From Armatimonadota bacterium (GTDB lineage: Bacteria > Armatimonadota > Hebobacteria > CAIYQO01), in contig JAKPKV010000186.1 of the NCBI GenBank assembly GCA_029553475.1, forward strand, positions 7,808 to 71,807: 64,000 bases of DNA, read 5' to 3'. Positions within the stretch are counted from its first letter, which is position 1. Each line of letters starts with the position of its first letter. Of the stretch, positions 9,070 to 52,607 are shown in pieces. The translations under genes were made by a program, and so were the position numbers. Under the pieces are notes generated by a model that saw only the letters and a program-made list of their open reading frames with translations, was not told the DNA's origin and made no database searches.

Positions 9070-9426
9070 TATGTGTAGCGGGCCGTCACGTGGTCTTTTG
9101 CCATACGCACCGTAGTGCGCGCCCGCCTGCCTGCCCCGATGGAATCGTGGGTGGCGCGCGGGGGGTGGAAGTGTCCGCGCCGTGCCCGATGTTCACGCCG
9201 CCGGGCGCGAGATCAACTGATAGTGGTTCCTTTGGCGCATGCCCAGCCCGCTCTCGCGTCGACGCTCAAGGACCGGGCGTGTCTGGCCAAATACCTGACG
9301 GGTTACATCAACGAACTCTTCGTCTTCGTGCAGCCCCCCGAGGTGCCGCACGAGAACAACCCGGCCGAGCGGGCCATCCGTCCGCTGGTCATCACCCGCA
9401 AAGTCTGCGGGGAGACATCCCCATCG
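9070..9426 (+). mobile_element. remnant of an IS66-family element: MITE/IS-like terminal motif (9070-9110) followed by a C-terminal transposase fragment (~9289-9426), internally deleted
   Basis: Translated fragment LAKYLTGYINELFVFVQPPEVPHENNPAERAIRPLVITRKV matches the IS66 TnpC C-terminal L-RYL...NN-AERAIRP-AIGRKN region, with no upstream part. The 5' motif GTGTAGCGGGCCGTCACGTGG is shared with other repeat copies in this window. Confidence 0.4.
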
Positions 9427-14667: not shown

Positions 14668-14900
14668 GCGGCACATAGTATCATGGCATGTAGTTGTACT
14701 GGGCCGTCACGTTGCACCTTGCTCTGTAGTCCGCGCCCTCCGCGGCGCGTGGTGACGCATTTTTACCCCGTGCCCGATGACGGTGGTGTCGGACACAGGT
14801 GCGCATGTCGGTCACACGCGCCGCGGAGGGCGCGGACTACCCCGGGCTGGTTTGCTACACAGAGTACACCGTGACAACCCGCGGCACGTAGTATCATGGT
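14668..14900. repeat. MITE-like palindromic repeat element (copy A)
   Basis: Flanked by near-identical direct repeats CGCGGCAC(A/G)TAGTATCATGG at 14668-14690 and 14879-14900. Internal 25-bp inverted repeat TAGTCCGCGCCCTCCGCGGCGCG / CGCGCCGCGGAGGGCGCGGACTA. Terminal motifs GTACTGGGCCGTCACGTTGCACCTTGC and GTGACAACCCGCGGCAC are shared with copies at ~9075, 18140 and 45313. Confidence 0.5.
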
Positions 14901-18139: not shown

Positions 18140-18470
18140 CTGCGTGTACTGGATCGTCACGTTGCACCTTGCCGCGTCCATCGTCGGGAACGCCGTCCCT
18201 GGCGTTCCGGTGCGCATTCTGTCGAGCCGCTCTCGGTCACCAGCAGACTCGCGCCCGCATCGGCCCACCCCTGCGGCGACCCGGAACGCCACGGAGGGCA
18301 TTCCCGACAATTAGGGGTTGGGGATGAGGGATTGGGCGCGCGCTACAGGCGGTTATCCTGATACGCACACGACAACGTAACGACCCCCTAACCCCTAATC
18401 CCCAACCCCTCACCCCGACCAGCGGTCGGTGCGCAGAGCACGAGACAGCGTGACAACCCGCTGCACTCTG
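18140..18470. repeat. MITE-like palindromic repeat element (copy B, larger) with internal G-rich/C-rich inverted repeats
   Basis: 5' end GTGTACTGGATCGTCACGTTGCACCTTGC and 3' end CAGCGTGACAACCCGCTGCAC match copy A termini. Internal TTAGGGGTTGGGGATGAGGGATTGGG is inverted as CCCCTAACCCCTAATCCCCAACCCCTCACCCC. Confidence 0.45.
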
Positions 18471-18547: not shown

Positions 18548-18748
18548 GCACGTTGATGGGTAACCGTTCAGTCTTGTCAGCATGATGTGGCGTCTGCCCG
18601 CCCACCTCTCCCCCCGCCCCTCCCCTGAGCGGGGAGGGGAGCACCGGATCTGCACACCCATCACTCCCCCTTCCCTCGCAGGGAAGGGGGATGGGGGGTG
18701 AGGTTTGGCATCAATCGGCGACATGCTGATAAGACTGAACGGTTACGT
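18548..18748. repeat. second-family MITE-like element with ~25-bp terminal inverted repeats, enclosing GC-rich hairpins, directly upstream of the next gene
   Basis: Left end CGTTGATGGGTAACCGTTCAGTCTTGTCAGCATG and right end CATGCTGATAAGACTGAACGGTTACGTTGATGG are reverse complements. The interior contains CCTCTCCCCCCGCCCCTCCCCTGAGCGGGGAGGGGAG, a solo copy of the 36945 hairpin repeat, and CCCCCTTCCCTCGCAGGGAAGGGGG. Confidence 0.4.
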
Positions 18749-36935: not shown

Positions 36936-36944
36936 CGCGTTCGG

Positions 36945-37096
36945 TCACCGGGGGTCACCTCTCCCCCCGCCCCCCTCCCCTAAGCGGGGAGGGGGAGTGA
37001 GTTGAGATGCGAAAACGTGTTGTCTTCTCTCTCCGTTTCTCCCCCTCCCCGCTTAGGGGAGGGGGCCGGGGGAGAGGTGACCCCCGATGACGGGCT
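36945..37096. repeat. MITE-like hairpin element with ~47-bp GC-rich terminal inverted repeats
   Basis: GGGGGTCACCTCTCCCCCCGCCCCCCTCCCCTAAGCGGGGAGGGGGAG and its reverse complement flank a 41-bp spacer. A solo copy lies at 18604-18650. The element ends exactly at the pyr promoter -35. Confidence 0.45.
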
Positions 37097-37124
37097 TGAC
37101 GTCCCGCGCCCGCGTTGGTATAAT
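37096..37124 (+). promoter_or_regulatory. sigma70-type promoter of the pyr operon: TTGACG-N17-TATAAT
   Basis: Read directly: -35 at 37096-37101, -10 at 37119-37124. Confidence 0.55.
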
Positions 37125-37150
37125 GCGCTGACACTCGACCTTTTAACGGG

Positions 37151-38889
<1,739 letters not shown>

Positions 38890-38893
<4 letters not shown>

Positions 38894-40167
38894 CGTTAGC
38901 GCTCAAAGATGTGGTACATCAGGGGGAACTGGTCTCGCTGCTCGTTGAAGGCACTGAAGTCTCCACCGTGCGCGATATCCCCGGCGGTGTTGACGTGCTT
39001 GATGGCCGCGGCATGGAAGCGGTTCCCGCGTTGTGGGACGCGCACGTCCACTTCCGCGAACCCGGCAATACCGACGCCGAAGACCTGCTTTCCGGCGCCC
39101 GCGCGGCTGCCGCCGGCGGGTATGGCGCCGTCTGCTGCGAGCCGAATACCCGACCGGTGATGGATACCCTCGACGCGATTCAGGCATTTGACCGCCGCGT
39201 CGAAGCATTGGGCATCCCCATCGGCGTCTACCCGAAGGCGGCTTTGACAAGAGGGCAAGACGGCGCGGAGCTCGTTGACATCGAAGCCATCGCGCCGGAA
39301 GTCACTGCCTTCAGCACGGATGGCGAACCCGTCGTGGACCGTGAGCTGTTGATTGAAGCATTCCGCCGCACGTTCGCATTTGACGAAGAGCAGCCGCGCG
39401 AGATCCACGCCCATTGCGAGGAAACGCCTCGTTCGCACGACCGCGTCGTCGCCGCATTGGGCGATGGGCCCTACCTCGCCCGCGAGACCGAGATCGTGCG
39501 CCTGCACCTTGAAGCGCTCGAAGCCGCCGGCATGGGTTACCTGCGCATTCAGCACGTCAGTCTCCCCGAAACGGTGGAACTGGTCAAGGCGTTCATGTCG
39601 CGCATGCTCGATAGCCCCGGATTATCTCCCATCCTGGTCACGATGGAAGTGACGCCGCACCACCTGCGGCTCTGTCAGGATGATATTCCTGTTGTCGAAG
39701 GCCAACCCGATCCACATTGGAAAATGAATCCGCCGCTGCGCAGCGCGAAGGCACAGCGGGGACTGCTGGCGCACCTGTGGGATTTTGCATATATCGCCAC
39801 TGACCATGCGCCGCATACGCCCGCGTCGAAAGCGCGTCCGTGGGATGATGCGCCGTTCGGCGTCATTGGGCTTGAGACAGCTTTTGGCGCGCTGGCGTCA
39901 TTTGAAGACAATCCGCATTTGCCGATGCAGCGGCAACTGCTGCTCGATCGTTTATCGCCGTCGAATAAAGTGATGTCCCCGGACTCCTCACGGTTCGCGC
40001 AGGGGATTACCCTCATTGACTGGGATCACGTCTGGACGGTAGACCCCGACCGATTCTACTCCAAGTCGCGCAACTGCCCCTTCGCCGGGATGACGTTCCG
40101 CGGGAAGCCGATGTATACCATTGCTGGCGGCCGGGTGGTGATGGCCGAGGGCGAGGTGTTGTTTTGA
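38890..40167 (+). CDS. pyrC: dihydroorotase (ATCase-associated type)
   Basis: DAHVHFREPG ... TDHAPH amidohydrolase metal-ligand motifs. ATGA overlap with pyrB. Confidence 0.75.
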
Positions 40168-40192
40168 ACTTGCAACCCGGAATCTGGAACCG

Positions 40193-41338
40193 ATGATGAA
40201 TGCAAAGCTTGTACTGAGTGATGGCACCGTCTTCACCGGCCTTTCCATCGGGGCGCCGGTGACCCACGTCGGCGAGGTGGTCTTCAATACCTCAATGACC
40301 GGGTATCAAGAGATGTTGACGGACCCGAGTTACCGGGGGCAGATTCTCACCCTCACCTATCCGCTCATCGGCAACTACGGGGTGATGGCGGAGGATTGGG
40401 AATCGGGCGAGATTCAGGTGCGCGGCTTCGTGGTGAAGCAGCTCTGCGACGCCCCCAGCAACTGGCGCGCCACCGGCGCGCTGGACGCCTTCCTGAAGGA
40501 GCGCGGGGTGCCGGGCATCGCCGGGGTGGATACGCGGGCGCTCACCCGCCTCATCCGCGCGGGCGGCGTGATGATGGGCGCGCTGAGCGGCGAGGATCTG
40601 TCGACCGAGGAGGTGCTGGCGCGCATCGCCGCGGAGCCGAACTACGGCGCCAATGATTTCGTGAGGGAGGTGAGCGGCGGGCGGACATACCCGTGGACGG
40701 AGCCGGCCCAGGCGCCCTACGATACGCTGAAACGGTTCGTTGCCCCGGAGCCGCTGCGCGTGACAGTGGTGGACTACGGCGTGAAGCGCAACATCCTGCG
40801 CCTGCTCGCCACCCGCGGCTGCGCGGTGCGCGTGGTGCCGTGCGAGGCGTCGCCGGCGATGATGCTGGAGGGCCGGCCGGACGGCATCGTCTTCTCGCCC
40901 GGCCCCGGCGATCCGGCGCTGCTGGATTACGCCCGCGAGAGCATGAAGGCGGTGGTGGGCGTGGGCATCCCAATTCTGGGCATCTGCCTGGGGCACCAGC
41001 TCATGGCGCACGCGTTCGGCGGGCGCACCTTTAAATTGAAGTTCGGCCACCGCGGCAGCAACCACCCGGTGAAAGATTTGGTGCGCGCCGGCACGGTGCA
41101 CATCACCGCGCAGAATCACGGCTACGCGGTGGACGCCGACAGCATCGCCGGCAGCGGCCTGGAGGTGTCGCATATCAACCTGAACGACGGCACGGTGGAA
41201 GGCATGGTCCATCGGACCCTGCCCATCATGACGATGCAGTTTCACCCGGAGGCCAGCGGCGGCCCGCGTGACACGGAGTATATGTTCGACGAATACGTCC
41301 GCCTGGTCGCCGAAAAGCGCGCGGCGGTGAAGGTGTAG
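40193..41338 (+). CDS. carA: carbamoyl-phosphate synthase small (glutaminase) subunit
   Basis: GICLGHQLMAHAFGG is the class-I glutamine amidotransferase Cys motif, on a CPSase small N-terminal domain. Confidence 0.85.
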   Translation: MMNAKLVLSDGTVFTGLSIGAPVTHVGEVVFNTSMTGYQEMLTDPSYRGQILTLTYPLIGNYGVMAEDWESGEIQVRGFVVKQLCDAPSNWRATGALDAFLKERGVPGIAGVDTRALTRLIRAGGVMMGALSGEDLSTEEVLARIAAEPNYGANDFVREVSGGRTYPWTEPAQAPYDTLKRFVAPEPLRVTVVDYGVKRNILRLLATRGCAVRVVPCEASPAMMLEGRPDGIVFSPGPGDPALLDYARESMKAVVGVGIPILGICLGHQLMAHAFGGRTFKLKFGHRGSNHPVKDLVRAGTVHITAQNHGYAVDADSIAGSGLEVSHINLNDGTVEGMVHRTLPIMTMQFHPEASGGPRDTEYMFDEYVRLVAEKRAAVKV

Positions 41339-41631
41339 AGAATGAAAGGCTATATGCACGGTACCACTGGGACTGACTGCGCATGGCCGTATTGGCAAGC
41401 CGTGGCATCAGTGCGCCCCCGTGGCGGGGTGAGCGCAGTCGTGCCATGCGTAGTCTGTCCCTTCAACGCTGGGACCAAACTATCAAGATTTCACGCAGGG
41501 ATGGCACCGCCGTCCGGACGGCAAGGGGGCATCGGATGATTGTCACCGCATGACCCACCGACGACCGGATGCAGAAGAAAGCCAGAGAGAGGAGGTAGAC
41601 CGCGTTCCCCCCTTGATACACGGGAGCAGCA

Positions 41632-42595
41632 GATGACACAGGAACACATCGAAGACACGACACCGTCCATCGAGACGCCGGCGACAACCATGATCGGCAG
41701 CCTGCTGCCGCGGCTGCGGGCGCTGCTGATGACCTGGCCCGACGTGCGGCTGGCCTATTTCCAGCCCGCGCCGGCGGACGATCAGCTGTGCCTGCTGGGG
41801 CCGGACCGCGCGCGGGTGATCCTCTGCTTCGCGCGCAGTGTCTCCGGCGAGCACATCAGCAAGCGGCTGGCGAAGATTCGCCGGCACTGCAAACCGCTGA
41901 CGCGGGGCGAGGTGGAGTTCCTGGATATCGAGGACCTAGACTACCGCGAGGCCTGCGAGGTGGCGTTCAACGCGCAGGTGGCCTACGGCGCGCTGGAGAG
42001 CGCCGAGCGCGACCGGCTCTATCGGTATAACGTCTTCCTGGAGTGGAACGCCAGCAAGCGGATACAGGGCACGCGGCAGGACACCCCGCCGGTGCTGGCC
42101 CCCTCGCTGGAGCGCCCGCCGACGGTGGTGCCGGTGCAAAAGTTTCTCAGGCCGCTCTACCGGCAGATGAAACTGCTGGACGGCTACCTGCGCGAGCTGC
42201 GGCGCATTGCCGAAATGGCGCCGAACGAGTTCACCGCCGACGCGGCAAACAAAGGACAGGCGGAGTCCTGCCTGTTGAAAGGCATTCAGAGCGTCATCCT
42301 GGTGACGTTGAGCATCGTGCATCGGAACATGCGGCTGGCCGCGCGCGATTATCGCGACCTGTTCCTGCTGCTGCCGCTGTATGGCCTGATGCCGCGCGAG
42401 CGCGCGAACAAGCTGGCGAAATGCGCCGAGCTGCGCGACCGCCTCATGTTCCAATACGACGACGTCACCGCGCTGGAGGTGCACGGGCACGTGGAAGCCG
42501 TGCTGGATACGCTGGCCGACTTCAAGAGCTATATGCTCGAGTGGCTATTCGATAGATATTATGATCCGACCGGCGAGTTGGTCCAAACAGAATAA
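41632..42595 (+). CDS. hypothetical protein with C-terminal DUF86 / HepT-like (HEPN) domain and a possible degenerate nucleotidyltransferase N-terminal domain
   Basis: C-terminus LKGIQSVILVTLSIVHRNMRLAARDY ... AELRDRLMFQYDDV resembles HepT R-x4-H-x-Y, with the His replaced. GGGAG RBS. Confidence 0.35.
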
Positions 42596-42608
42596 GCGAG
42601 GCCAGACG

Positions 42609-43103
42609 GTGCGCGCCATCGCGACGGCACTGGTTGAACACCACGGCCACCTGCTGCTCTGTCAGCTTGCGCGCGGTGAATACGCCGGTTTCTGGCTGCT
42701 GCCGTCGGCGTCGGTAGATGACGGGACGGTGTTGCAGACCGCGCAGCGGATGCTGCCGGAGCGCACCGGCTACACCGCGACGGCGCTGGAGCTGGTGAGC
42801 GTGGTTGAGGAACCGAAGACGAACGCGTTGAGCCTGCGTTTCGTCTTTGCCGCCGCCGTGGCGGACCCGCAGGCCGAGCACAGCGATACGGATATCCTGC
42901 AGGCGCGTTGGTTCAGCCGCGCCGCGGCGCGGGAGCTGCTGGCGGAGCGGGACGTGGTGCCGAATCTCGGCGTGATGTCGCTGGTGCGCGCCTGGGCGGA
43001 CGGCATCACCCCGCGGCCGCTGGAGTTGCTGGACGAGAGCGCGCCGTGCCCATGCGGGTCAGGCTACGGCTTCCGCGGGTGTTGCGGATGGGATAGCAAA
43101 TAG
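42609..43103 (+). CDS. NUDIX hydrolase with C-terminal SEC-C metal-binding motif
   Basis: NUDIX-fold body; terminal CPCGSGYGFRGCCG. GTG start with GAGG RBS. Confidence 0.5.
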   Translation: MRAIATALVEHHGHLLLCQLARGEYAGFWLLPSASVDDGTVLQTAQRMLPERTGYTATALELVSVVEEPKTNALSLRFVFAAAVADPQAEHSDTDILQARWFSRAAARELLAERDVVPNLGVMSLVRAWADGITPRPLELLDESAPCPCGSGYGFRGCCGWDSK

Positions 43104-43134
43104 CCCCAGCGGGGCGTGTGCGTGAGGAACACGA

Positions 43135-44820
43135 ATGCCAAAGCGAACCGATCTGAAAACAGTCATGGTCATCGGCTCCGGCCCGATCGTCATCGGGCAG
43201 GCGGCGGAGTTTGACTACGCCGGCACCCAGGCCTGCCGCTCGCTGCGCGAGGAGGGCCTGTCCGTGGTGCTGGTGAACAGCAACCCGGCCACCATTATGA
43301 CGGACATGAACATGGCCGACCGGGTGTATGTGGAGCCGCTGACGGTGGAGTTCCTCACCCGCATCATCGCCAAGGAGCGCCCGGACGGCCTGCTGCCCAC
43401 GCTGGGCGGGCAGACGGGCCTGAACCTCGCCACCAAGCTGGCGAAGAAAGGCGTGCTAGACGAGTACCGCGTGGAGCTGCTCGGCACGCCGCTGGAGTCC
43501 ATCGAAAAGGCGGAGGACCGCGAGCATTTCAAGGCGCTGATGCAGGAGATCGGCGAGCCGGTGCCGGAATCGGCCATCGTCGAGCGCATGGACGAGGTGG
43601 AAGAGTTCCTCGACGAGCTGGTGCGCGTCGAGGCGAAGACCGGCCAGCCCGTCTACCCCATCATCGTGCGGCCTGCCTACACGCTGGGCGGCACCGGCGG
43701 CGGCATCGCCGACACCTGGGACGAGCTGCGCGACATCTGCGTGCGCGGCTTCCGCATGTCCATGACCTCGCAGTTGCTGCTGGAGCGCTGCCTGCTCGGC
43801 TGGAAAGAGATCGAGTACGAGGTGATGCGCGACGGCGCCGACAACTGCATCACCATCTGCAATATGGAGAATTTCGACCCGATGGGCATCCACACGGGCG
43901 ACTCCATCGTCATCGCCCCCAGCCAGACGCTCACCGATAAAGAGTACCAGATGTTGCGCACGGCGTCGCTGAAGATCATCCGCGCGCTGGGCATCGAGGG
44001 CGGCTGCAACGTGCAGCTCGCGCTGGATACCAACTCCTTCCGCTACTACGTCATCGAGGTGAATCCGCGCGTGAGCCGCTCCTCGGCGCTGGCCTCCAAG
44101 GCCACCGGGTACCCCATCGCCCGCGTGGCGGCGAAGATCGCCGTGGGCCTGCATCTGGATGAAATCCAGAACGCGGTGACGAAGCGCACGCTGGCCTGTT
44201 TTGAGCCCGCGCTGGATTACTGCGTGCTGAAGATCCCGCGCTGGCCTTTTGACAAGTTCAACTTCGCCAACCGCCGCATCGGCACGCAGATGAAGGCCAC
44301 CGGCGAGGTGATGGCCATTGACCGCACCTTCGCGGGCGCGCTGATGAAGGCGGTGCGCTCGCTGGAGATCGGGCAGCTCGGCCTGGCGATGAAAGGCATC
44401 GGCGAGTGGTCGGAGATGAAGCTGGAAGAGGTGCTGCGCCACGCCACCGACGAGCGCCTCGCCGCCATCTGCGAAGCCTTCCGCCGCGGCATGGACGTGC
44501 CCGAGGTGCGGCAGCTCACCAACGTGGACCCGTGGTTCCTGCGGCAGGTGAAAGACCTGGTGGAGTTGGAATTGGAGTTCCGCGCCCACTTCGGCCTGCC
44601 GGATGAAGCGATGCTGCGCCGCGCCAAAGAGTGGGGCTTCAACGACCACTACCTGGCCGAGCTGTGGGGCGTGAAAGAGGCGGAAATCCGCGACCTGCGC
44701 CGCCACTGGGGCATCCAGCCCGTCTACAAAATGGTGGATACCTGCGCCGCCGAGTTCGAATCGGAGACGCCGTATTTCTACTCGACGTACGACCGGGAGA
44801 ATGAATTGGCCGTGGTATAA
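43135..44820 (+). CDS. carB: carbamoyl-phosphate synthase large subunit, N-terminal half (carboxyphosphate domain plus oligomerisation domain)
   Basis: [34 protein letters not shown]... It ends [14 protein letters not shown] exactly at the boundary between the two homologous halves of full-length CarB. Confidence 0.85.
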
Positions 44821-44839
44821 TGGGCGCGAGGTCAGTTCC

Positions 44840-45193
44840 ATGCAAAAAACCACCAGGAATATCGCACGACGATTCACACCACGCCAATGGGAGGTGATCT
44901 CCGCCGTGAAGGCAGCCGCCCGACATGTACTGCCGGACGCGGACATCATCCTCTATGGCTCCCGCGCGCGCGGCACCGCCGGGCCGGAGTCCGACTGGGA
45001 TTTCCTGATCCTCACTGACGAGACAGTGACCGTGGCACTGGAAGAGACGATGCGCAAAGCGATGGATGCCCTATCGCTGGAGATCGCGGAGGTGATCAGC
45101 GCATTTCTCGAAAATCGCCAGACCTGGAAAACACCATTGTTGAAAGCAACACCCTACCATCAGGCGATCGAACAGGAGGGAATCGCGGTATGA
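44840..45193 (+). CDS. nucleotidyltransferase-domain protein (MNT-type antitoxin-like)
   Basis: Minimal NTase motif GSRARGTAGPESDWDFLIL (GS-x9-D-x-D). GAGG RBS. Confidence 0.65.
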   Translation: MQKTTRNIARRFTPRQWEVISAVKAAARHVLPDADIILYGSRARGTAGPESDWDFLILTDETVTVALEETMRKAMDALSLEIAEVISAFLENRQTWKTPLLKATPYHQAIEQEGIAV

Positions 45194-45312
45194 GCGACGA
45201 GCGAGCCACGCTGATACGCTACCGATTGGAACGAGCGCACGAAGCACTGGAAGAGGCGGACGTATGCTGGAAGATGGCACATTACAATTCATACGTCAAC
45301 CGGCTCTATTAC
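45190..45312 (+). pseudogene. HEPN-domain gene N-terminal fragment, truncated by insertion of MITE copy C
   Basis: MSDERATLIRYRLERAHEALEEADVCWKMAHYNSYVNRLYYAC resembles a HEPN helix-1/2 pattern ending in RLYYA. The reading frame then runs into the repeat terminus TGTAGCGGGTCGTCACG. Confidence 0.4.
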
Positions 45313-45545
45313 GCATGCTGTAGCGGGTCGTCACGATGTACCTTGTTCTTCGTATCAACTCAAGCGTCTTGTAGGGAATGTCCCGCCGTGGCATTCCAGA
45401 AGCGGTGCGCGGTGGAGTCCGCGACCAAACGCTATCGTCCCGTGCAGCGTGCCGATTCGCGACGGTCGGGAATGCCACGGCGGGACATTCCCTACCAGCG
45501 CTGATACCGATGTCGCAGCCGTGGTTGCCCGCGGCGACACGGTTT
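45313..45545. repeat. MITE-like repeat (copy C) with a 27-bp perfect internal inverted repeat
   Basis: Terminus TGTAGCGGGTCGTCACGATGTACCTTG. Internal GTAGGGAATGTCCCGCCGTGGCATTCC is inverted as GGGAATGCCACGGCGGGACATTCCCTAC. 3' end CCGTGGTTGCCCGCGGCGAC. Confidence 0.4.
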
Positions 45546-45626
45546 ATCGCGTTTGTTGAGGACGTCATCACACCATACACCACCGAGTGGTGCATGAGAG
45601 ATCACCTGGCGTTGACGAGGAAAACC

Positions 45627-45923
45627 ATGTTCATCCATTCCGTCTATTTCTGGCTGCGCGACGACCTGACCGACGCGCAGCGCGCGGCCTTCACCGAAGG
45701 CGTGCGGTCGCTGGCGACGATTCCGGCCGTGCGGAGCGGCTATGTCGGCGCCCCGGCGGCCACCGACCGCCCGGTGATTGACCGCAGCTATTCCGTCGGC
45801 CTGGTGGTGGACCTGGGCGACCTGGCCGGGCACGAGGCCTACCAGGCGCACCCAACGCACCTGGCCTTCCTGGAGCAGTTCAAGCCATTCTGGACGAAGG
45901 TGCAGATTTACGATTTCGCGTAA
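45627..45923 (+). CDS. Dabb-family stress-responsive alpha/beta-barrel protein
   Basis: 98 aa. MFIHSVYFWLRDDLTDAQRAAFTEGVRSL ... HEAYQAHPTHLAFLEQ. GAGGA RBS 8 nt upstream. Confidence 0.6.
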   Translation: MFIHSVYFWLRDDLTDAQRAAFTEGVRSLATIPAVRSGYVGAPAATDRPVIDRSYSVGLVVDLGDLAGHEAYQAHPTHLAFLEQFKPFWTKVQIYDFA

Positions 45924-45976
45924 ACCTGCGCCTCCGTGCTCTCCGTGTCTCTGTGTTTGAGTATTGAGGATCAGTC

Positions 45977-47548
45977 ATGTCCGAGAAGCAACGCGTCATC
46001 GTCATCGGCTCCGGGCCCATCCGCATCGGGCAGGGAATCGAGTTCGACTACTGCTCCGTGCACTCCGTGTGGGCGCTGCGCGAGGAGGGGTACGAGGCGA
46101 TCATCATCAACAACAACCCGGAGACGGTCTCCACCGACTTCGACACCTCGGACGCCCTGTTCTTCGAGCCGCTCACCGTGGAGGACGTGCTGAATCTGAT
46201 TGACCAGGTGCAGCCGGAGGGCGTGGTGGTGCAGTTCGGCGGGCAGACTGCCATCAACCTGGCGGGGCCGCTGCACGCGGCGGGGGTGAAGATCCTCGGC
46301 ACCGACTTCCGCGGCATCGAGCTGGCGGAAGACCGCAAGCTCTTCGACGCGCTGCTCACCGACCTCGACATCGAGCGCCCGAAGGGCCGCGCCATCACGT
46401 CCGTGCCGGAAGCGGTGGAGGCCAGCCGCGCAATCGGCTTCCCGCTGCTCATCCGCCCCAGCTTCGTGCTCGGCGGCCGCGCGATGGAGATCGTCTACGA
46501 TGAAGAGCACCTGCGCCGCTACATGACCTACGCCGTGGACGTCGCGCCTGACCGCCCCATCCTGGTGGACCGCTACATCGTCGGCAAAGAGGTGGAGGTG
46601 GACTGCATTTCCGACGGCACGGACGTGCTCATCCCCGGCATTATGGAGCACATCGAGGCCGCCGGCGTGCACAGTGGCGACTCCATGTCCGTCTACCCGC
46701 CCGTCACCCTCTCCCGGCAGGTGAAGGATACCGTGGTGGAGTACGCCATGCGCCTCTGCCGCGGCATCGGCGTGGTGGGGCTGATGAACATCCAGTACGT
46801 GGTGGACGAGCACGACACCGTCTACATCATCGAGGTGAACCCGCGCGCCTCGCGCACCGTGCCCTACATGAGCAAGGTCACCGGCGTGCCGATGGTGAGC
46901 CTGGCCACCAAATGCGCCCTCGGCCGCACGCTCAACGAGCTGGGCTACGCGCACGGTCTCTATCCCGAGCGCCCCTACTTCGCGGTGAAGGCGCCGGTCT
47001 TCAGCTTCTCAAAACTCACCGAGCTGGACGTCTCCCTCGGGCCGGAGATGAAGTCCACCGGCGAAATCATGGGCGTGGACCCGTCCTACCCGCACGCGCT
47101 GTACAAGGCGATGGTCGGCTCGCACATTGACGTGCCGCTGCGCGGCTCGATGATCGCCACCATCGCCGAGCGCGACAAACCGCGCGCGCTGCCCATCATC
47201 CGGCGCTTCCGCGAGCTGGGGTTCAAGGTCTACGCCACCCGCGGCACCGCGCTTTTCCTCATCCAGCACGGCGTGGACGCGCAGAGCGTGGCGAAAATCT
47301 CCCAGGGCAGCCCGCACCTGCTCGACCTCATCCGCGAGGAGAAGATTGACCTGCTGCTGAACACGCTCTCGCCGGAGAAGACGGTGGAGCAGGAGGGCGC
47401 CCGCATCCGCCGCGCCTCGGTGGAGCACAACATCCCCTGCCTCACCTCCCTCGACACCGCCGAAGCCCTCCTCCTCGCCCTGGAAGCCCGCCGCGCCGGC
47501 GAAGATTTTGCCGTCTACGCGCTGGACGAGCTGCTGCAGATGGCGTAA
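45977..47548 (+). CDS. carB: carbamoyl-phosphate synthase large subunit, C-terminal half (carbamate-phosphorylation domain plus MGS-like domain)
   Basis: MSEKQRVIVIGSGPIRIGQGIEFDYCSVH ... with a C-terminal MGS-like region. It has its own GAGGA RBS 7 nt upstream. Confidence 0.85.
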   Translation: MSEKQRVIVIGSGPIRIGQGIEFDYCSVHSVWALREEGYEAIIINNNPETVSTDFDTSDALFFEPLTVEDVLNLIDQVQPEGVVVQFGGQTAINLAGPLHAAGVKILGTDFRGIELAEDRKLFDALLTDLDIERPKGRAITSVPEAVEASRAIGFPLLIRPSFVLGGRAMEIVYDEEHLRRYMTYAVDVAPDRPILVDRYIVGKEVEVDCISDGTDVLIPGIMEHIEAAGVHSGDSMSVYPPVTLSRQVKDTVVEYAMRLCRGIGVVGLMNIQYVVDEHDTVYIIEVNPRASRTVPYMSKVTGVPMVSLATKCALGRTLNELGYAHGLYPERPYFAVKAPVFSFSKLTELDVSLGPEMKSTGEIMGVDPSYPHALYKAMVGSHIDVPLRGSMIATIAERDKPRALPIIRRFRELGFKVYATRGTALFLIQHGVDAQSVAKISQGSPHLLDLIREEKIDLLLNTLSPEKTVEQEGARIRRASVEHNIPCLTSLDTAEALLLALEARRAGEDFAVYALDELLQMA

Positions 47549-47755
47549 AACAGCGGCGGGCGAGACGCCGTCGAGCCGCATACACCGTGCCGGCCGCGTC
47601 TGCGCCCTCTGTCTCCACAGGGGAATCCCTCGCCTTCCCGAATTTGTGCGCAGATCCCCGCCGGCTACCTGTTTGACGGCAGGATTAGCGCCCGCTATAG
47701 TGGGGAGAGAGCCACAGGTCGTGAATTCCCGGAGATCGGGAGCGGAGAAGATCGT

Positions 47756-50700
47756 ATGACACGACGGCCAGGGTGGCGCGGAGGGCTCCTGAGCGTGCTG
47801 CTGGTGGGAATGCTGTGTGCATACGCTCAAGAGGCAGCGCTGCCGCGCCCCCCGGACCCGCCCCCCCATCGCGATCACCCCCAGTGACGGCTTCAGCCTC
47901 GAAGTGGTGGACCAGACCACCCCGCACTACGTCATCGTCAAACTCACCTCCCCCGCGCACAACTGGCTCGCTGGCACCTTCACCCACCTCCCCACGGACA
48001 AAGACGTCACTATCGGCCTATCCATAGCCGGCAACGATACCAAGAGCAATGCCGCCGACGTGAAGAAGTGGCAGGGACTGGTGCCGGTGATGACCTACGC
48101 CGACCCGAAACAGTACGAGACCTACAAGTGGGATGCGCAGGGCCGATGGGTGAGCGGCGACCCCTTCAAGCAGGATGAAGCGAAGTACGCCGGCACTGGC
48201 AAAGTGCCAGCGCAGGCGGTCATTCCGAAGGATATGGCCGAGCAGTTCCTCTCGGCAGACGGGAAATACTGGTCTGCGTGGCGGGAGGTGGACACGGCAG
48301 AAGCGTTGCCGGGGATCAACGTCTTCCGCATCACCCAGCGCTTTGGCCAGGCCACCGCGACGGTGGCGATGCGGGTGCCCTACACCTATACCCGCGGCGC
48401 GCCCTGGGCGTCCGCGACGAAGACGCCGTCGGCCAGTACCGCCTGGAATCTGGCGACTACCACGGTGCCCTCGCCGGTCTACATCGAGGGCACGGGGGCG
48501 AGCAGCGCGGTAGGCGACCTGGAGGTGATCCTGCGCTACGCGAACGGGGGGACGACGACACAGGACGTGGTGAAGGCGACGGTGGTTGACGTTAACCTGG
48601 AGATCGAGGGCGTGGCGGACGCTGACGAGGAGACGGTCGGCGGAGTTGTCGGGAAAGGTGCCGGTCTGCTTCCGATCACCCTCTCGATTCCTGAGAGCTT
48701 GCGGACCGGTGTTGTCTCTTTGGAGGCGACCGCCGGCGGCACGCGGATTGAACTCTACGAAGATGCGGAAGGGACAACAGCGCTCCCGCTGGTGCCTGTG
48801 CCGACATGGAATCTGGCTAACCAAGAGGCCGTCTCGCAAACGCTCTATATCAACGGTGTCCAGGCAAGTGCCGCAATGCGCGATGCCACCCTTAAGCTGC
48901 GGTACGAAAAGGCTGGGCAGGCGGCGGAAGATTTCGTCAAACTCACGGTGGCGAAGATCGATCTCGTCATCCAGAATCTCGCTGAAGAAATCGATGCCGG
49001 AGGAAATCCCCCGCATGAGACGGATCCGGACGCATTTCTGCCGGCCAATACCGATGATGATAACGGTAATGGGATCGCGGATCATGCGGAAGTTGCCGTG
49101 TGGGACGAGGACCTACAGGTTGATCGCACGTATGTCGAGAGTGAAAATGACTTGGTCGCCCTCAAAATTGGAACCCTCCCCGTCGGGTCTACCGGCACGG
49201 TTACGTTGGCAAGCAGTAACGATAAGCTCGTCTTCTGGACATCCCCGAAGAAAGACAGCAAAGTGTCCGATACGCTGACGCGGACCTGGACGATCGGCGA
49301 CGAGAACGATCCGATACCGGATACGGTGTATGTGGAAGGGGTCGCCGTCAGTACAGCGGTGCGCGATACCGAGATTACGCTCACCTACACCGGTGCAGGC
49401 ATTACCGTTGCGGATGTCCTCAAAGTGACCGTGGTGCAGGCCGACGTCTCCATCCAGGAATGCACTGAAGCGAGTGAAGTGTCGCCGGGCGCCATTGTCA
49501 TGCTGAATCGGGAAGGCGATGACCTGGTGCCGATGACGCTGACCCTCTCCCCCTCGGGGGTCGATGTCGGGAAGCTCGGACTCACCATGAGCGGAGGCGT
49601 GAAGCTCTGGACCTCTTTGGCGAAGGAGGTAGAAGCGCCTGCGTCATGGACGCTCGCCCCCGGCGCACCCTTCACTGGCGCCACGTATTACGTCGAAGGT
49701 ACAGCGGTGAGTACGGCATTGCGAGACAAAGCTGTGTCATTCACCTATGCCGTCAATGAGAAAAAAGTGCACGAAGATATCGGCAAGGTGACGGTCGCGA
49801 ACCTCACCATCAGTTTGCCGGAGAAGGCACTGTATACGAATACTGATGATGATAACTTAAATGGTACGGATGACATAAATGACCCGGGAGAAGTGGCGGA
49901 TGAAAATGACTTGAAACAGCTCTTGATTAAACTCGAACCGGCTGGCTTAACGGGAACCCTCACGGTAGCAGTGAAAACGCTTGAGACGGAGAATAACGCC
50001 GGCGAAGACTATGATGCCGCACCGCGCGTCAATCTGACAACGCTGCCGAAAGTGGGCCAGCGGTTGTCGGAAACGCATACGTGGCAGAGACCGAACGACA
50101 CGTTTCCCACCGCGCTCTGGGTTGAAGGGAAGCGTGTCAGCGCAGACGAGGATGACCAGGAGATCACCGTCACCTACGAATACGGCGCATCTTCCCTCTC
50201 GTCAATCGCGCTTGCGACGGTGGAAGCGCGAATCGCAACATCAGAAGTGTGTTTCCGGCTGTACCAAATGAATGACAGTAACCCAACGGTTGCCTCACTG
50301 GCGACCCAGCCGGAGATAAACGCGGGCACGGTGGGAGATACCGTCGCGGTGGTCATGGAAGTGAAGATCGGCCCGGACAACCGGGTCGCGCGGGATGCCG
50401 AAGGCACGCTCCTCGCGAATGAGGTGCAAGTGCTGATCAAGGACCTGTGGGAGGGCTATGAGCCTGATAAGTCACGGGCACAGTGCGATCCGACTGTCGC
50501 GCTCGATTGGGCCTCCCGGTTGTCGGAATGCCAGAACGTGGGCACCCCACAGGCGAGCTGGAATGCCGGTGGCGACACAGCACCATCCGAAAGTAACCTG
50601 AATGCCGCGAAGCCACGCATCTTCCGCGCAATCGTGAAAAAGTGGGACACCCGGACCGGGCCGGGCGTGACGTATTTCAACGAGGCGACACAACAATGGA

Positions 50701-52607
50701 CGGGCTTCACGCCGACGATGGGGCATAACACAAAACACTCCATCAGTGTAATGGCGATTGATGGGGATGCGACCAAAACGAAAATTCCGTTCCAACAATA
50801 CACGGTGGCCACGGACGGGTGGGGCACAGCGACCGAGGTGGACGTGAAGGCCCGCGAAGTGGAGGTGAAGAACCTGGTGGTGTCGAATGTGAATGCCACT
50901 ACAGGTACTGTTGACTACTTGCGCTATGATCCGGACCCCGACAGTCCGTATCATCGCCCGAGGATAACTTTTTCGGTTGATGATACGGTGTTTCCACAAC
51001 CCGACCATACGTACAAGTATTGGGTGATGATTCAACCGACGAAGGATAGCGGAAAGGAATTGTTGGACTTAGATGATATCTATTCGTATGCCTATACGTT
51101 CGCACATGGTCAAATGCCACCTGTCGTGAGTGAGATAGAATGGGTAGGAACGGATAGCATGGATGGTGAACCGGATAGTGCGCAGCGGGGAACATATACG
51201 TATGATGTAGTTGTAGAAGAATGGGTAGGTTCAACGCTTATCGATAGGTTTGCTTATAAGTGGCCATACTGTTTGACAGTGGATAAACACGATACTTGGG
51301 TTGATACTCTTGATAGTGGGCAAGTCATGAAGTTTCATTATACATTGTACGATTACTGTTATTACGATACTACGTTACCAAATTCGAAACTTCACTCTCC
51401 TACAGGAGTAAACGTCATTATCATAGATAACGAGTTGAACGAACGGCAGCTTACAAACCTAATTGCTAATCCAAACGAGATAGGAAACCCTCATGATGGT
51501 GGTGGAGATGGGTTAGTCGCATATGAAGCGAGTGATAGTGAGGTTATTGGCACTTGGAGGATATTAATAACTGGTAGAGATGAGTGTTGGGTAGCATACA
51601 GACGCGACCACAATCCATCATTAATGTTGGCTGTTAACAAAGAGAGCTTGCTTCAAGCGATAGTGCTGCACCCTATACAAATCTTGACTTCTTTTCTCAA
51701 TTTTGATACAGGTGGTCCAGATTGGATAAGAAATCTTGAAGGTAATGCTATGGGGTTAGTAAATTTCACTGCGGGAACACTAGATGTAGCCCTCACGAAT
51801 GGGCCAGTAAGTAACGCAAATATTTTAGTTGTTTATTGTCGTAACCAAGCAATGAAAGATGCAGTAGTATCAGGCTTTGGCACAATTCGTAAACATGGTA
51901 TGAAAATGTACGTGTCGCAAGAGATAAATAAATTTACACAGACACTACAGCAATACAAAGTATGGGAAATTGAAGATCCGTATGTTTTCGGTAAGAGATT
52001 TATGGAGGCTGGTCTCACGATATACTCCCTTGGTCGAGGCGCACAAGGCTTAGCCAAAGCATCTCTTCCGCCAAGGGCTGCTGTGCAAGGAGCGCCGAAG
52101 ATCGTTGAATTGAAATCCGGCTCACCGTCTGCTGCAACTATTTCGGTAGAAGTCACAAATCAGTTTCTTGCAGCAAGGGAGACAGCAGCACTAATGCGCC
52201 TCCCAAGCTATTATATTAGACTCTATCAAGCATGGACGTCGCCTAAAGGATTAGTATATACGAAAGCGTTAATTCGAAGAGGGAATAGCACACTGATTGA
52301 GTGTAGAGTAAAGCATGTATCAGTTGATCACTCACATGAATATGGTCTGCCAGGTAAAACATATTTCAAGTGTCCGCAAAAAGAAATTTTATCTGTCGTT
52401 GACAGGGCGTGGGAAAGAATCGTTATGAAAGATCCAGCAGTTAAGAAAGCGGTCGAAGGAGGACGAATAAAATATGAGATGAAACTCGGGTCAGGAACGG
52501 ATCATATCGGTACGGGAGGAGAGCAATGGATACAGATCATTGTTGAAGGTGAGTATGAAAACCTTCTCGTCTCAGCTTATCCGATACCTGTACCATCAAT
52601 ACCATAA
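47756..52607 (+). CDS. giant secreted tandem-repeat protein. Signal-peptide exon (47756-47887) is out of frame (-1) with the main ORF (47817-52607) at a poly-C tract. C-terminal ~500 codons sit in AT-rich DNA: candidate polymorphic-toxin-like or adhesin-like protein
   Basis: ATG at 47756 encodes MTRRPGWRGGLLSVLLVGMLCAYAQEAALP (signal peptide), then stops at 47885. Deleting one C in C6 (47848-53) or C7 (47861-67) reads through into ...IAITPSDGFSLEVVDQ... Body has ~120-aa repeats (YVEGVAVSTAVRDTEITLTY...DVLKVTVVQADVSIQ) and Asp-rich NTDDDNGNGIADH motifs. GC falls from about 65% to about 40% after ~50.9 kb. Confidence 0.55.

Follow-up and report, generated by a model that had tools for sequence, protein, structure and literature searches.

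How does a gene for an essential biosynthetic enzyme come to lie in two pieces with unrelated genes nested between them, and did these genes cause the break? The question is raised by the pyrimidine (pyr) gene cluster on a 64-kb stretch of DNA from an Armatimonadota bacterium (assembly GCA_029553475.1, contig JAKPKV010000186.1, positions 7,808 to 71,807; hereafter the window), in which carB, the gene of the large subunit of carbamoyl-phosphate synthetase (CPSase), is present as two genes, carB-N and carB-C, about 1.16 kb apart. The gap holds the gene of a minimal nucleotidyltransferase (MNT), remnants of a HEPN gene, a repeat element and a gene of the Dabb family. An initial annotation of the sequence described the gap genes as insertions, with the implication that they had split the essential carB, and this is contradicted by related loci, where the same clean split occurs with nothing but a 70-nt spacer between the halves. 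We consider it probable that the split is old, that both halves are functional and that the nested genes are passengers in a slot that tolerates them.

The Two Halves of carB

The description of carB as two genes cut at an inter-domain boundary was confirmed by alignments with a CarB profile and with the E. coli enzyme. Of the 1058 positions of the profile, carB-N covers 1-545 and carB-C 549-1050, while residues 1-552 and 558-1058 of E. coli CarB (1073 aa) correspond to carB-N and carB-C, respectively. In the known structure of the E. coli enzyme, this break point is where the oligomerisation domain meets the second synthetase unit. The Pfam domains CPSase_L_D1 and CPSase_L_D2 are present in both open reading frames (ORFs), D3 is found in the N half only and MGS in the C half only. 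The downstream half does have a ribosome-binding site (RBS) of its own, as annotated: the sequence GAGGA is located 6 nt 5' of its ATG codon (Table 1).

The ratios of non-synonymous to synonymous substitution rates (dN/dS, Nei-Gojobori method, versus L002, L082, L085, L088 and L089; the figures leave out the Dabb rows) are 0.04-0.16 for carB-N and 0.08-0.20 for carB-C. To judge by these sequence comparisons, both halves are intact and under strong purifying selection. An alternative mentioned in the initial annotation is that one half is a pseudogene, with a second, intact carB present elsewhere. According to this scenario one of the halves is decaying and carbamoyl phosphate is supplied by an intact carB or by another source encoded elsewhere in the genome, of which 64 kb were inspected; the existence of fused carB genes in some Armatimonadota is in line with it. 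We nevertheless find the scenario extremely improbable, since the low dN/dS values apply to both halves, both are full-length against the profiles and kept in every clade member seen, and no second carB was found in the 64-kb window. Nor is the split an artefact of assembly: 21 protein clusters and many contigs show it.

The Split in the Closest Relatives

Related genomes were compared, as the initial annotation had proposed, and the split was found in all examined members of the clade to which the window belongs, with or without an insert. The window is part of contig Ga0116243_10000461 of JGI metagenome 3300010344, and its nearest genomic relatives are uncultured Armatimonadota. A protein search with CarB-N returned 21 clusters of 83-92% identity, all of about 561 aa, and each match below 70% identity was a longer protein. 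All 100 bootstrap replicates of the CarB-N tree support the clade as monophyletic, and every member whose genomic context was fetched carries split carB.

What lies between the halves differs from one relative to another. There is nothing but the short spacer in L083/L084 (86% identity in CarB-N) and Dabb only in L002 (96%) and L082 (92%). Dabb is accompanied by a 239-aa ORF in L085, by DUF2461 in L086/L087, by DUF2461 and a 197-aa ORF in the contig carrying P0007, and by an IS200-like Y1 transposase in L088. The gap of L092/L093 is occupied by MNT, an intact HEPN (132 aa), Dabb and DUF2461, that of L096/L097 by the same set with an intact HEPN of 133 aa, and that of L094/L095 by MNT, a second nucleotidyltransferase, Dabb and an MqsA-like gene. 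The most complex set is that of L089, with a C-terminal remnant of MNT, a DUF4258/MqsA pair, another MNT, a 42-aa HEPN fragment and a TPR ORF. The transposase gene of L088 (7686-8620) is flanked on both sides by direct repeats of about 150 nt, a layout that resembles that of RAYT transposases and their repetitive extragenic palindromic (REP) sequences.

The location of the cassette exactly between the halves would be expected if an insertion of MNT/HEPN, of the repeat, regarded as a miniature inverted-repeat transposable element (MITE), or of Dabb had split a formerly fused carB in this lineage, and the nearest relative with a fused gene, L003, is just 72% identical. However, L083/L084 have the same split without an insert, L002 and L082 are split without MNT or HEPN, and the split is also found in Chthonomonadales, Capsulimonadaceae, Abditibacterium and Fimbriimonas. 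Moreover, in L083 the reading frame of the N half runs on into the C half, interrupted by one stop codon, as in a fission of the point-mutation type, and the step between the split and the fused state is therefore small. Splitting of carB by an insertion in this lineage is thus hardly credible. The gap between the halves is a permissive site at which genes come and go from relative to relative, and the fission itself is older than the clade and common in the phylum.

Table 1. Features of the pyr cluster, in window coordinates
Feature	Position	Strand	Size	Evidence or remark
Candidate sigma-70-like promoter of the pyr operon	37096..37124	+		TTGACG-17-TATAAT, with TG; consensus match only
Candidate PyrR-binding leader/attenuator	37135..37244	+		Rfam RF00515; terminator-like hairpin at 37220-37240
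carA (CPSase small, glutaminase subunit)	40193..41338	+		TIGR01368, 467 bits
Single-chain MNT-like + HepT-like protein	41633..42595	+	320 aa	Clade-specific; between carA and carB-N
NUDIX-fold protein with C-terminal SEC-C-type CPCGSG..GCCGWD motif	42609..43103	+		Pfam NUDIX, E=1e-7
carB-N (carboxyphosphate synthetase unit + oligomerisation domain)	43135..44820	+	561 aa	CarB profile, E. coli CarB alignment
MNT minimal nucleotidyltransferase	44840..45193	+	117 aa	Pfam NTP_transf_2, E=4.6e-10
HEPN N-terminal remnant	45190..45318	+	43 codons	Overlaps the MNT stop by 4 nt
Repeat element replacing the HEPN core	45319..45498	+		28-nt head 45319-45346 + palindrome 45368-45498
Probable HEPN C-terminal remnant, QPWLPAATRFIAFVEDVI	45516..45569	+	~18 codons	Aligns to AEPWLTEATQFVETIEKLI of L092 HEPN; tentative, short
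Dabb (stress-responsive alpha/beta barrel)	45627..45923	+	98 aa	Pfam, E=7.8e-17
carB-C (carbamoyl-phosphate synthetase unit + MGS-like allosteric domain)	45977..47548	+	523 aa	Own RBS

Split and Fused carB Across the Phylum

For the phylum-wide comparison, 80 loci from one-genome-per-species collections were used. Most genomes of Armatimonadota and Abditibacteriota have a carB-N that ends at this seam. The distance from it to the C half is 93 nt in L007 and L031, 267 nt in L016 and 0.9-2.5 kb in L010, L025, L027, L028, L032, L035-L037 and L075; in L047 the C half lies upstream of the N half. It was not found in the 10 kb downstream of the N half in L006, L012, L019-L021, L023, L026, L038, L039, L052, L054, L059, L065 and L077, or in the 7.4 kb downstream in L011. 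All Chloroflexota and Bacillota loci are fused, and fused carB is also present in eight Armatimonadota-type loci (L003, L005, L009, L014, L017, L030, L034 and L062). The linkers of L003, L009 and L030 are 5-16 residues longer than the usual linker of the outgroups (L081 excepted). The fused Armatimonadota genes have linkers rich in Ala and Pro, with the junction after ...YFYSTY.xENE.

On the neighbour-joining tree of CarB-N there are at least four changes between the split and the fused state, with a bootstrap median of five. These changes represent either several fissions or fissions followed by re-fusions, and re-fusion of split carB in Armatimonadota is possible. In our limited literature search, no paper on split carB in Armatimonadota was found.

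The gap is populated by other genes elsewhere in the phylum. In Chthonomonadaceae (L010, L025, L027, L028, L032 and L035-L037) it holds a conserved S-adenosylmethionine-dependent methyltransferase (about 270 aa), a conserved protein (about 330 aa) for which no family match was found, or both, and in Fimbriimonas L075 it holds a 5'-nucleotidase and an OmdA-domain gene. In L044 (10001-11485), from the complete Armatimonadota chromosome OY969427.1, the carB-N query is matched as far as residue 479 and the ORF stops early, which may be due to a frameshift or to truncation of the gene.

The MNT-HEPN Module and Dabb

The nucleotidyltransferase that had been annotated between the halves by its GS...SDWD motif was confirmed by a Pfam match, with the start moved to the position given in Table 1. 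The gene is intact: GS...DxD is present in the form YGSRARG...SDWDF (YGSRARGTAGPESDWDF). The HEPN gene that follows had been described as an N-terminal fragment cut off by the repeat, and this holds as well. Over its 43 residues the fragment shares 74% identity with the N-terminus (residues 1-43) of the intact HEPN of L092, its alignment with HEPN partners from cyanobacteria stops at residue 43, and on its own it gives a weak match to Pfam HEPN (E=0.03). The probable C-terminal remnant is out of frame with the N-terminal one. The repeat element takes the place of residues 44 to about 105 of the intact orthologues (about 62 codons, including YRQASDY), and the R..SDY stretch, which is conserved in all intact HEPN homologues, is gone from the window. 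With its core replaced, HEPN, the toxin-type gene, is dead here, which leaves MNT an orphan. In this respect the downstream HEPN of the window differs from that of the HEPN/MNT type VII toxin-antitoxin modules of Aphanizomenon flos-aquae (7AE2/7AE9) and Shewanella oneidensis (HepT/MntA, 5YEP).

Orthologues of MNT with 62-73% identity are located directly after carB-N in L092/L093, L096/L097 and L094/L095, and the MNT remnant in the same slot of L089 is 56% identical over 34 residues. The loci L092-L097 lie across the root of the clade from the window. Because orthologues occupy the same slot on both sides of the root, MNT-HEPN is not a recent insertion; either it is an old resident that was lost repeatedly, including from the closest relatives of the window, or it was moved by recombination between clade members.

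The initial annotation raised the question of a defence or addiction module being co-transcribed with the pyr genes. An active type VII-like toxin-antitoxin or defence module, deliberately co-expressed with them, would be consistent with the intact GS...DxD motif of MNT, and L092 and L096 retain an intact HEPN in the same slot, so the pair is kept in those lineages. In the window, however, what is left of HEPN are two terminal pieces in different frames without the R..SDY segment, and the module was cleanly lost in the closest relatives, L002 and L082. An active module is very unlikely; as far as can be judged from the sequence, no working toxin is left in the pair for addiction or defence.

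Dabb, likewise annotated correctly except for its start (Table 1), is the commonest gap resident in the clade. Its product is 83.5% identical to those of L002 and L082, and the differences are mostly at third codon positions. The gene is absent from L083 and L089.

The Repeat Element

The element that took the place of the HEPN core begins with a 28-nt head motif, TGTAGCGGGTCGTCACGATGTACCTTGT, which is present in four copies in the 64 kb, with 0 expected by chance. The other copies (9074-9101, 14695-14840 and 18145-18290) are apparently intergenic, no long ORF running across them. In the palindrome that follows the head, arms of 27-33 nt that start with GTAG are 65 nt apart, and the predicted fold as single-stranded DNA has an energy of -56.8 kcal/mol (z=-10 versus shuffles). 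The layout is the same in the copy at 14695, which has a perfect palindrome with 26-nt arms of different sequence. Near-perfect long palindromes are thus present in two of the four copies, with different arms, and the remaining two copies are degenerate. Six independent assemblies of this population, which occurs in digester samples (JGI 3300010344, 3300009720 and 3300025682), contain the element, and neither the head motif nor the palindrome arm was found in any related locus.

The term MITE, used in the initial annotation, is a fair working label for a multi-copy palindromic element. However, no target-site duplication is evident at 45319/45498, and the window yielded no cognate transposase, IS200-like Y1 transposase or RAYT. 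Nor was the event a plain insertion, as about 186 nt were replaced. Like REP/REPIN-like or MITE-like repeats, the element is short, non-coding and multi-copy, with GTAG at the foot of a long hairpin and two inverted arms; it differs from them in that the 28-nt head is conserved while the arms vary between copies, a combination that is unusual for a MITE or REP element. The palindrome does not resemble an intrinsic terminator because no U-tract follows it.

Genes Between carA and carB-N

A second HEPN-like gene and a NUDIX/SEC-C gene were annotated between carA and carB-N. Both are present, but the first one encodes an MNT-HepT fusion and the Nudix box of the second is degenerate. The 320-aa fusion combines a HepT fold and an MntA fold in one polypeptide instead of the two-gene organisation of HepT/MntA; its N-terminal domain was assigned because of the structure and the alignment with canonical fusions. 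The family comprises 47 clusters, and all named ones are from Armatimonadota. When 1.84 billion representatives were searched exhaustively with a profile, the full-length matches formed essentially one cluster at 50% identity, and the remaining matches are to the C-terminal HepT domain only. Alignment by hhalign of the family with the MNT of the window itself gave no match.

The canonical single-chain MNT-HepT fusions (P0294, P0326, P0390 and P0344) have the same domain order, belong to the same length class and align with the family over the full length. They keep GS, DxD and RNxxxH, whereas the family of the window has lost these motifs and has small insertions in the nucleotidyltransferase domain. 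At the position of the Rx4HxY RNase motif of HepT the sequence is RDRLMFQY, with His changed to a Phe that is invariant in 39 sequences, and in the alignment with the canonical fusions GS is replaced by QP and DxD mostly by D-x-A. The protein thus departs from the HepT/MntA type VII systems in its single chain and in the changes of Rx4H to Rx4F and of GS/DxD to QP/DxA. Its dN/dS is 0.08-0.29. Judging from these motifs, the fusion is probably a conserved non-catalytic derivative and no toxin-antitoxin cassette. Two independent HEPN/MNT insertions, as initially proposed, are therefore not what the cluster contains: the downstream pair is an old resident and the upstream gene a single-chain fusion conserved in the clade. 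On the whole, the annotated anatomy of the locus stood, with small corrections of gene starts (that of NUDIX/SEC-C is probably 42609), and the account of insertions did not.

The start of the NUDIX/SEC-C gene is uncertain, with an alternative ATG at 42561. In place of the Nudix box GX5EX7REUXEEXGU it has RMLPERTGY, which is not conserved in the clade; the CPCGSG..GCCGWD motif is invariant in the clade alignment. Its dN/dS is 0.16-0.35. By tblastn the gene is present in most clade members, and it was not found in L088 or L094/L095.

Alternatively, the MNT-HepT pseudoenzyme, NUDIX/SEC-C and Dabb could have an accessory function in the split CPSase or in the control of pyrimidine synthesis, for example as assembly factors or as regulators that sense nucleotides. 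All three genes evolve under purifying selection (dN/dS 0.08-0.35) and keep the same places in most members of the clade, every MNT-HepT example with inspected context sits between carA and carB-N, and the loss of catalytic motifs with retention of the folds is typical of ligand-binding pseudoenzymes. However, each gene is missing from some clade members with split carB (the fusion from L083, L086 and L088, Dabb from the two loci named above, NUDIX/SEC-C from L088 and probably L094/L095), and none of them is found in other Armatimonadota with split carB. An accessory role is thus unlikely. Domestication proper, in which toxin-antitoxin and hydrolase scaffolds now serve the split CPSase as assembly factors or as regulators that sense nucleotides, also seems to us unlikely; if it were true, the fission of carB would have made room in the operon for additional subunits to be recruited.

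A Split Enzyme in an Operon with Probable Passengers

A split large subunit of CPSase is already known from Aquifex and from methanogens, and the split itself is not new. The carB gene of Methanocaldococcus jannaschii (MJ1378/MJ1381) is split at the seam between the halves, with other ORFs in between. That case is an archaeal one. In Aquifex, the carB halves are unlinked. Those of the window, by contrast, share a pyr operon, where they are set apart by unrelated nested genes, and the state is variable in Armatimonadota, split in many lineages and fused in some. As described in a passage of PMC6022934 that cites Ahuja et al. 2001, the large subunit of Aquifex aeolicus CPSase is encoded by two genes with one synthetase unit each, which provides a biochemical precedent for the split enzyme.

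In our reading, the large subunit in the bacterium studied here would be made as two polypeptides, CarB-N and CarB-C, cut at the seam of the homologous synthetase units. The whole cluster would be transcribed as one polycistronic mRNA from a PyrR-controlled promoter, each carB half would be translated from its own RBS, and CarA, CarB-N and CarB-C would together form the active enzyme, like the subunits of Aquifex aeolicus. MNT, HEPN and Dabb appear to be old residents of the slot, where in this genome the palindromic repeat has replaced the HEPN core and left the orphan MNT. The nested genes would then be tolerated passengers that ride on operon transcription, neither the cause of the split nor a working addiction module.

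Several points weigh against this account of an old split with passengers. The state changes were counted on a neighbour-joining gene tree built from one half, and its deep nodes are weak (56-76% bootstrap). The 64 kb are all of the genome that is visible, and a second carB may lie elsewhere. Co-transcription and assembly of the halves are steps that we infer, and a palindrome of -57 kcal/mol within the presumed transcript could affect downstream expression. Finally, Dabb, the MNT-HepT fusion and NUDIX/SEC-C are conserved under purifying selection, which is more than the status of a passenger predicts and would be compatible with a functional link.

The locus adds a comparative view of a gene fission, since on the CarB-N tree an essential gene has switched between the split and the fused form at least four times in Armatimonadota. 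Where the halves are linked, the seam acts as a landing pad that small genes enter and where they persist for long, decay and get lost; its visitors include toxin-antitoxin pairs, an IS200-like transposase, Dabb and DUF2461. Armatimonadota thus constitute a natural series for the study of gene fission and fusion and of selfish cassettes sheltering in essential operons. The conserved, catalytically degenerate single-chain MNT-HepT protein is possibly worth a biochemical study. A defence system built into pyrimidine synthesis is not what the locus shows.

Operon Layout and Other Observations

Every gene of the pyr cluster (37.1-47.5 kb) is on the + strand, in the order pyrR, pyrB, pyrC, carA, the HepT-like gene, NUDIX/SEC-C, carB-N, MNT, the HEPN remnant, the repeat, Dabb and carB-C. 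The first one is a pyrR-like gene of the phosphoribosyltransferase family. Upstream of the genes lie the promoter candidate and the leader candidate, whose RF00515 match (50.6 bits versus a gathering score of 54, E=2.2e-5) extends over the full length of the model. The + strand between 37240 and 47127 yielded neither a consensus promoter nor an intrinsic terminator, and an Rfam scan of 38000-49000 found no known RNA family, the microRNA matches being just long hairpins. A second type of long G/C-rich palindrome (CCCCTCCCCGCTTAGGGGAGGGG...) is located at 36944-37091, directly 5' of the promoter-like site, and accounts for spurious Rfam microRNA matches; a related arm is present at 18610-18639. 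The sole long spacer of the cluster, 294 nt of non-coding DNA at 41339-41632, separates carA from the MNT-HepT-like gene and gave no Rfam match and no consensus promoter.

The pyrC gene (38851-40167) is just 52% identical to that of L002, for the same genome pair in which carA and the carB halves are 91-96% identical. The GC content of the pyrC region is lower (0.59-0.65), and pyrC identity among the compared clade members, L002 not included, is 43-60%. Gene replacement, perhaps by horizontal transfer, or unusually fast evolution may be the cause of this divergence. Directly downstream of the operon there is a 1596-aa ORF (47817-52607) with no Pfam match, followed by an ankyrin-repeat gene.

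Small genes that vary between loci are also seen at other junctions of the operon, between pyrC and carA and between carA and carB-N, where 23S_rRNA_IVP four-helix-bundle genes and a DUF1016_N gene are located (L082, 2833-3222; L088, 3905-4291 and 5621-5932; L094, 5-643). Passengers thus accumulate across the whole operon, and the carB seam is not their sole site.

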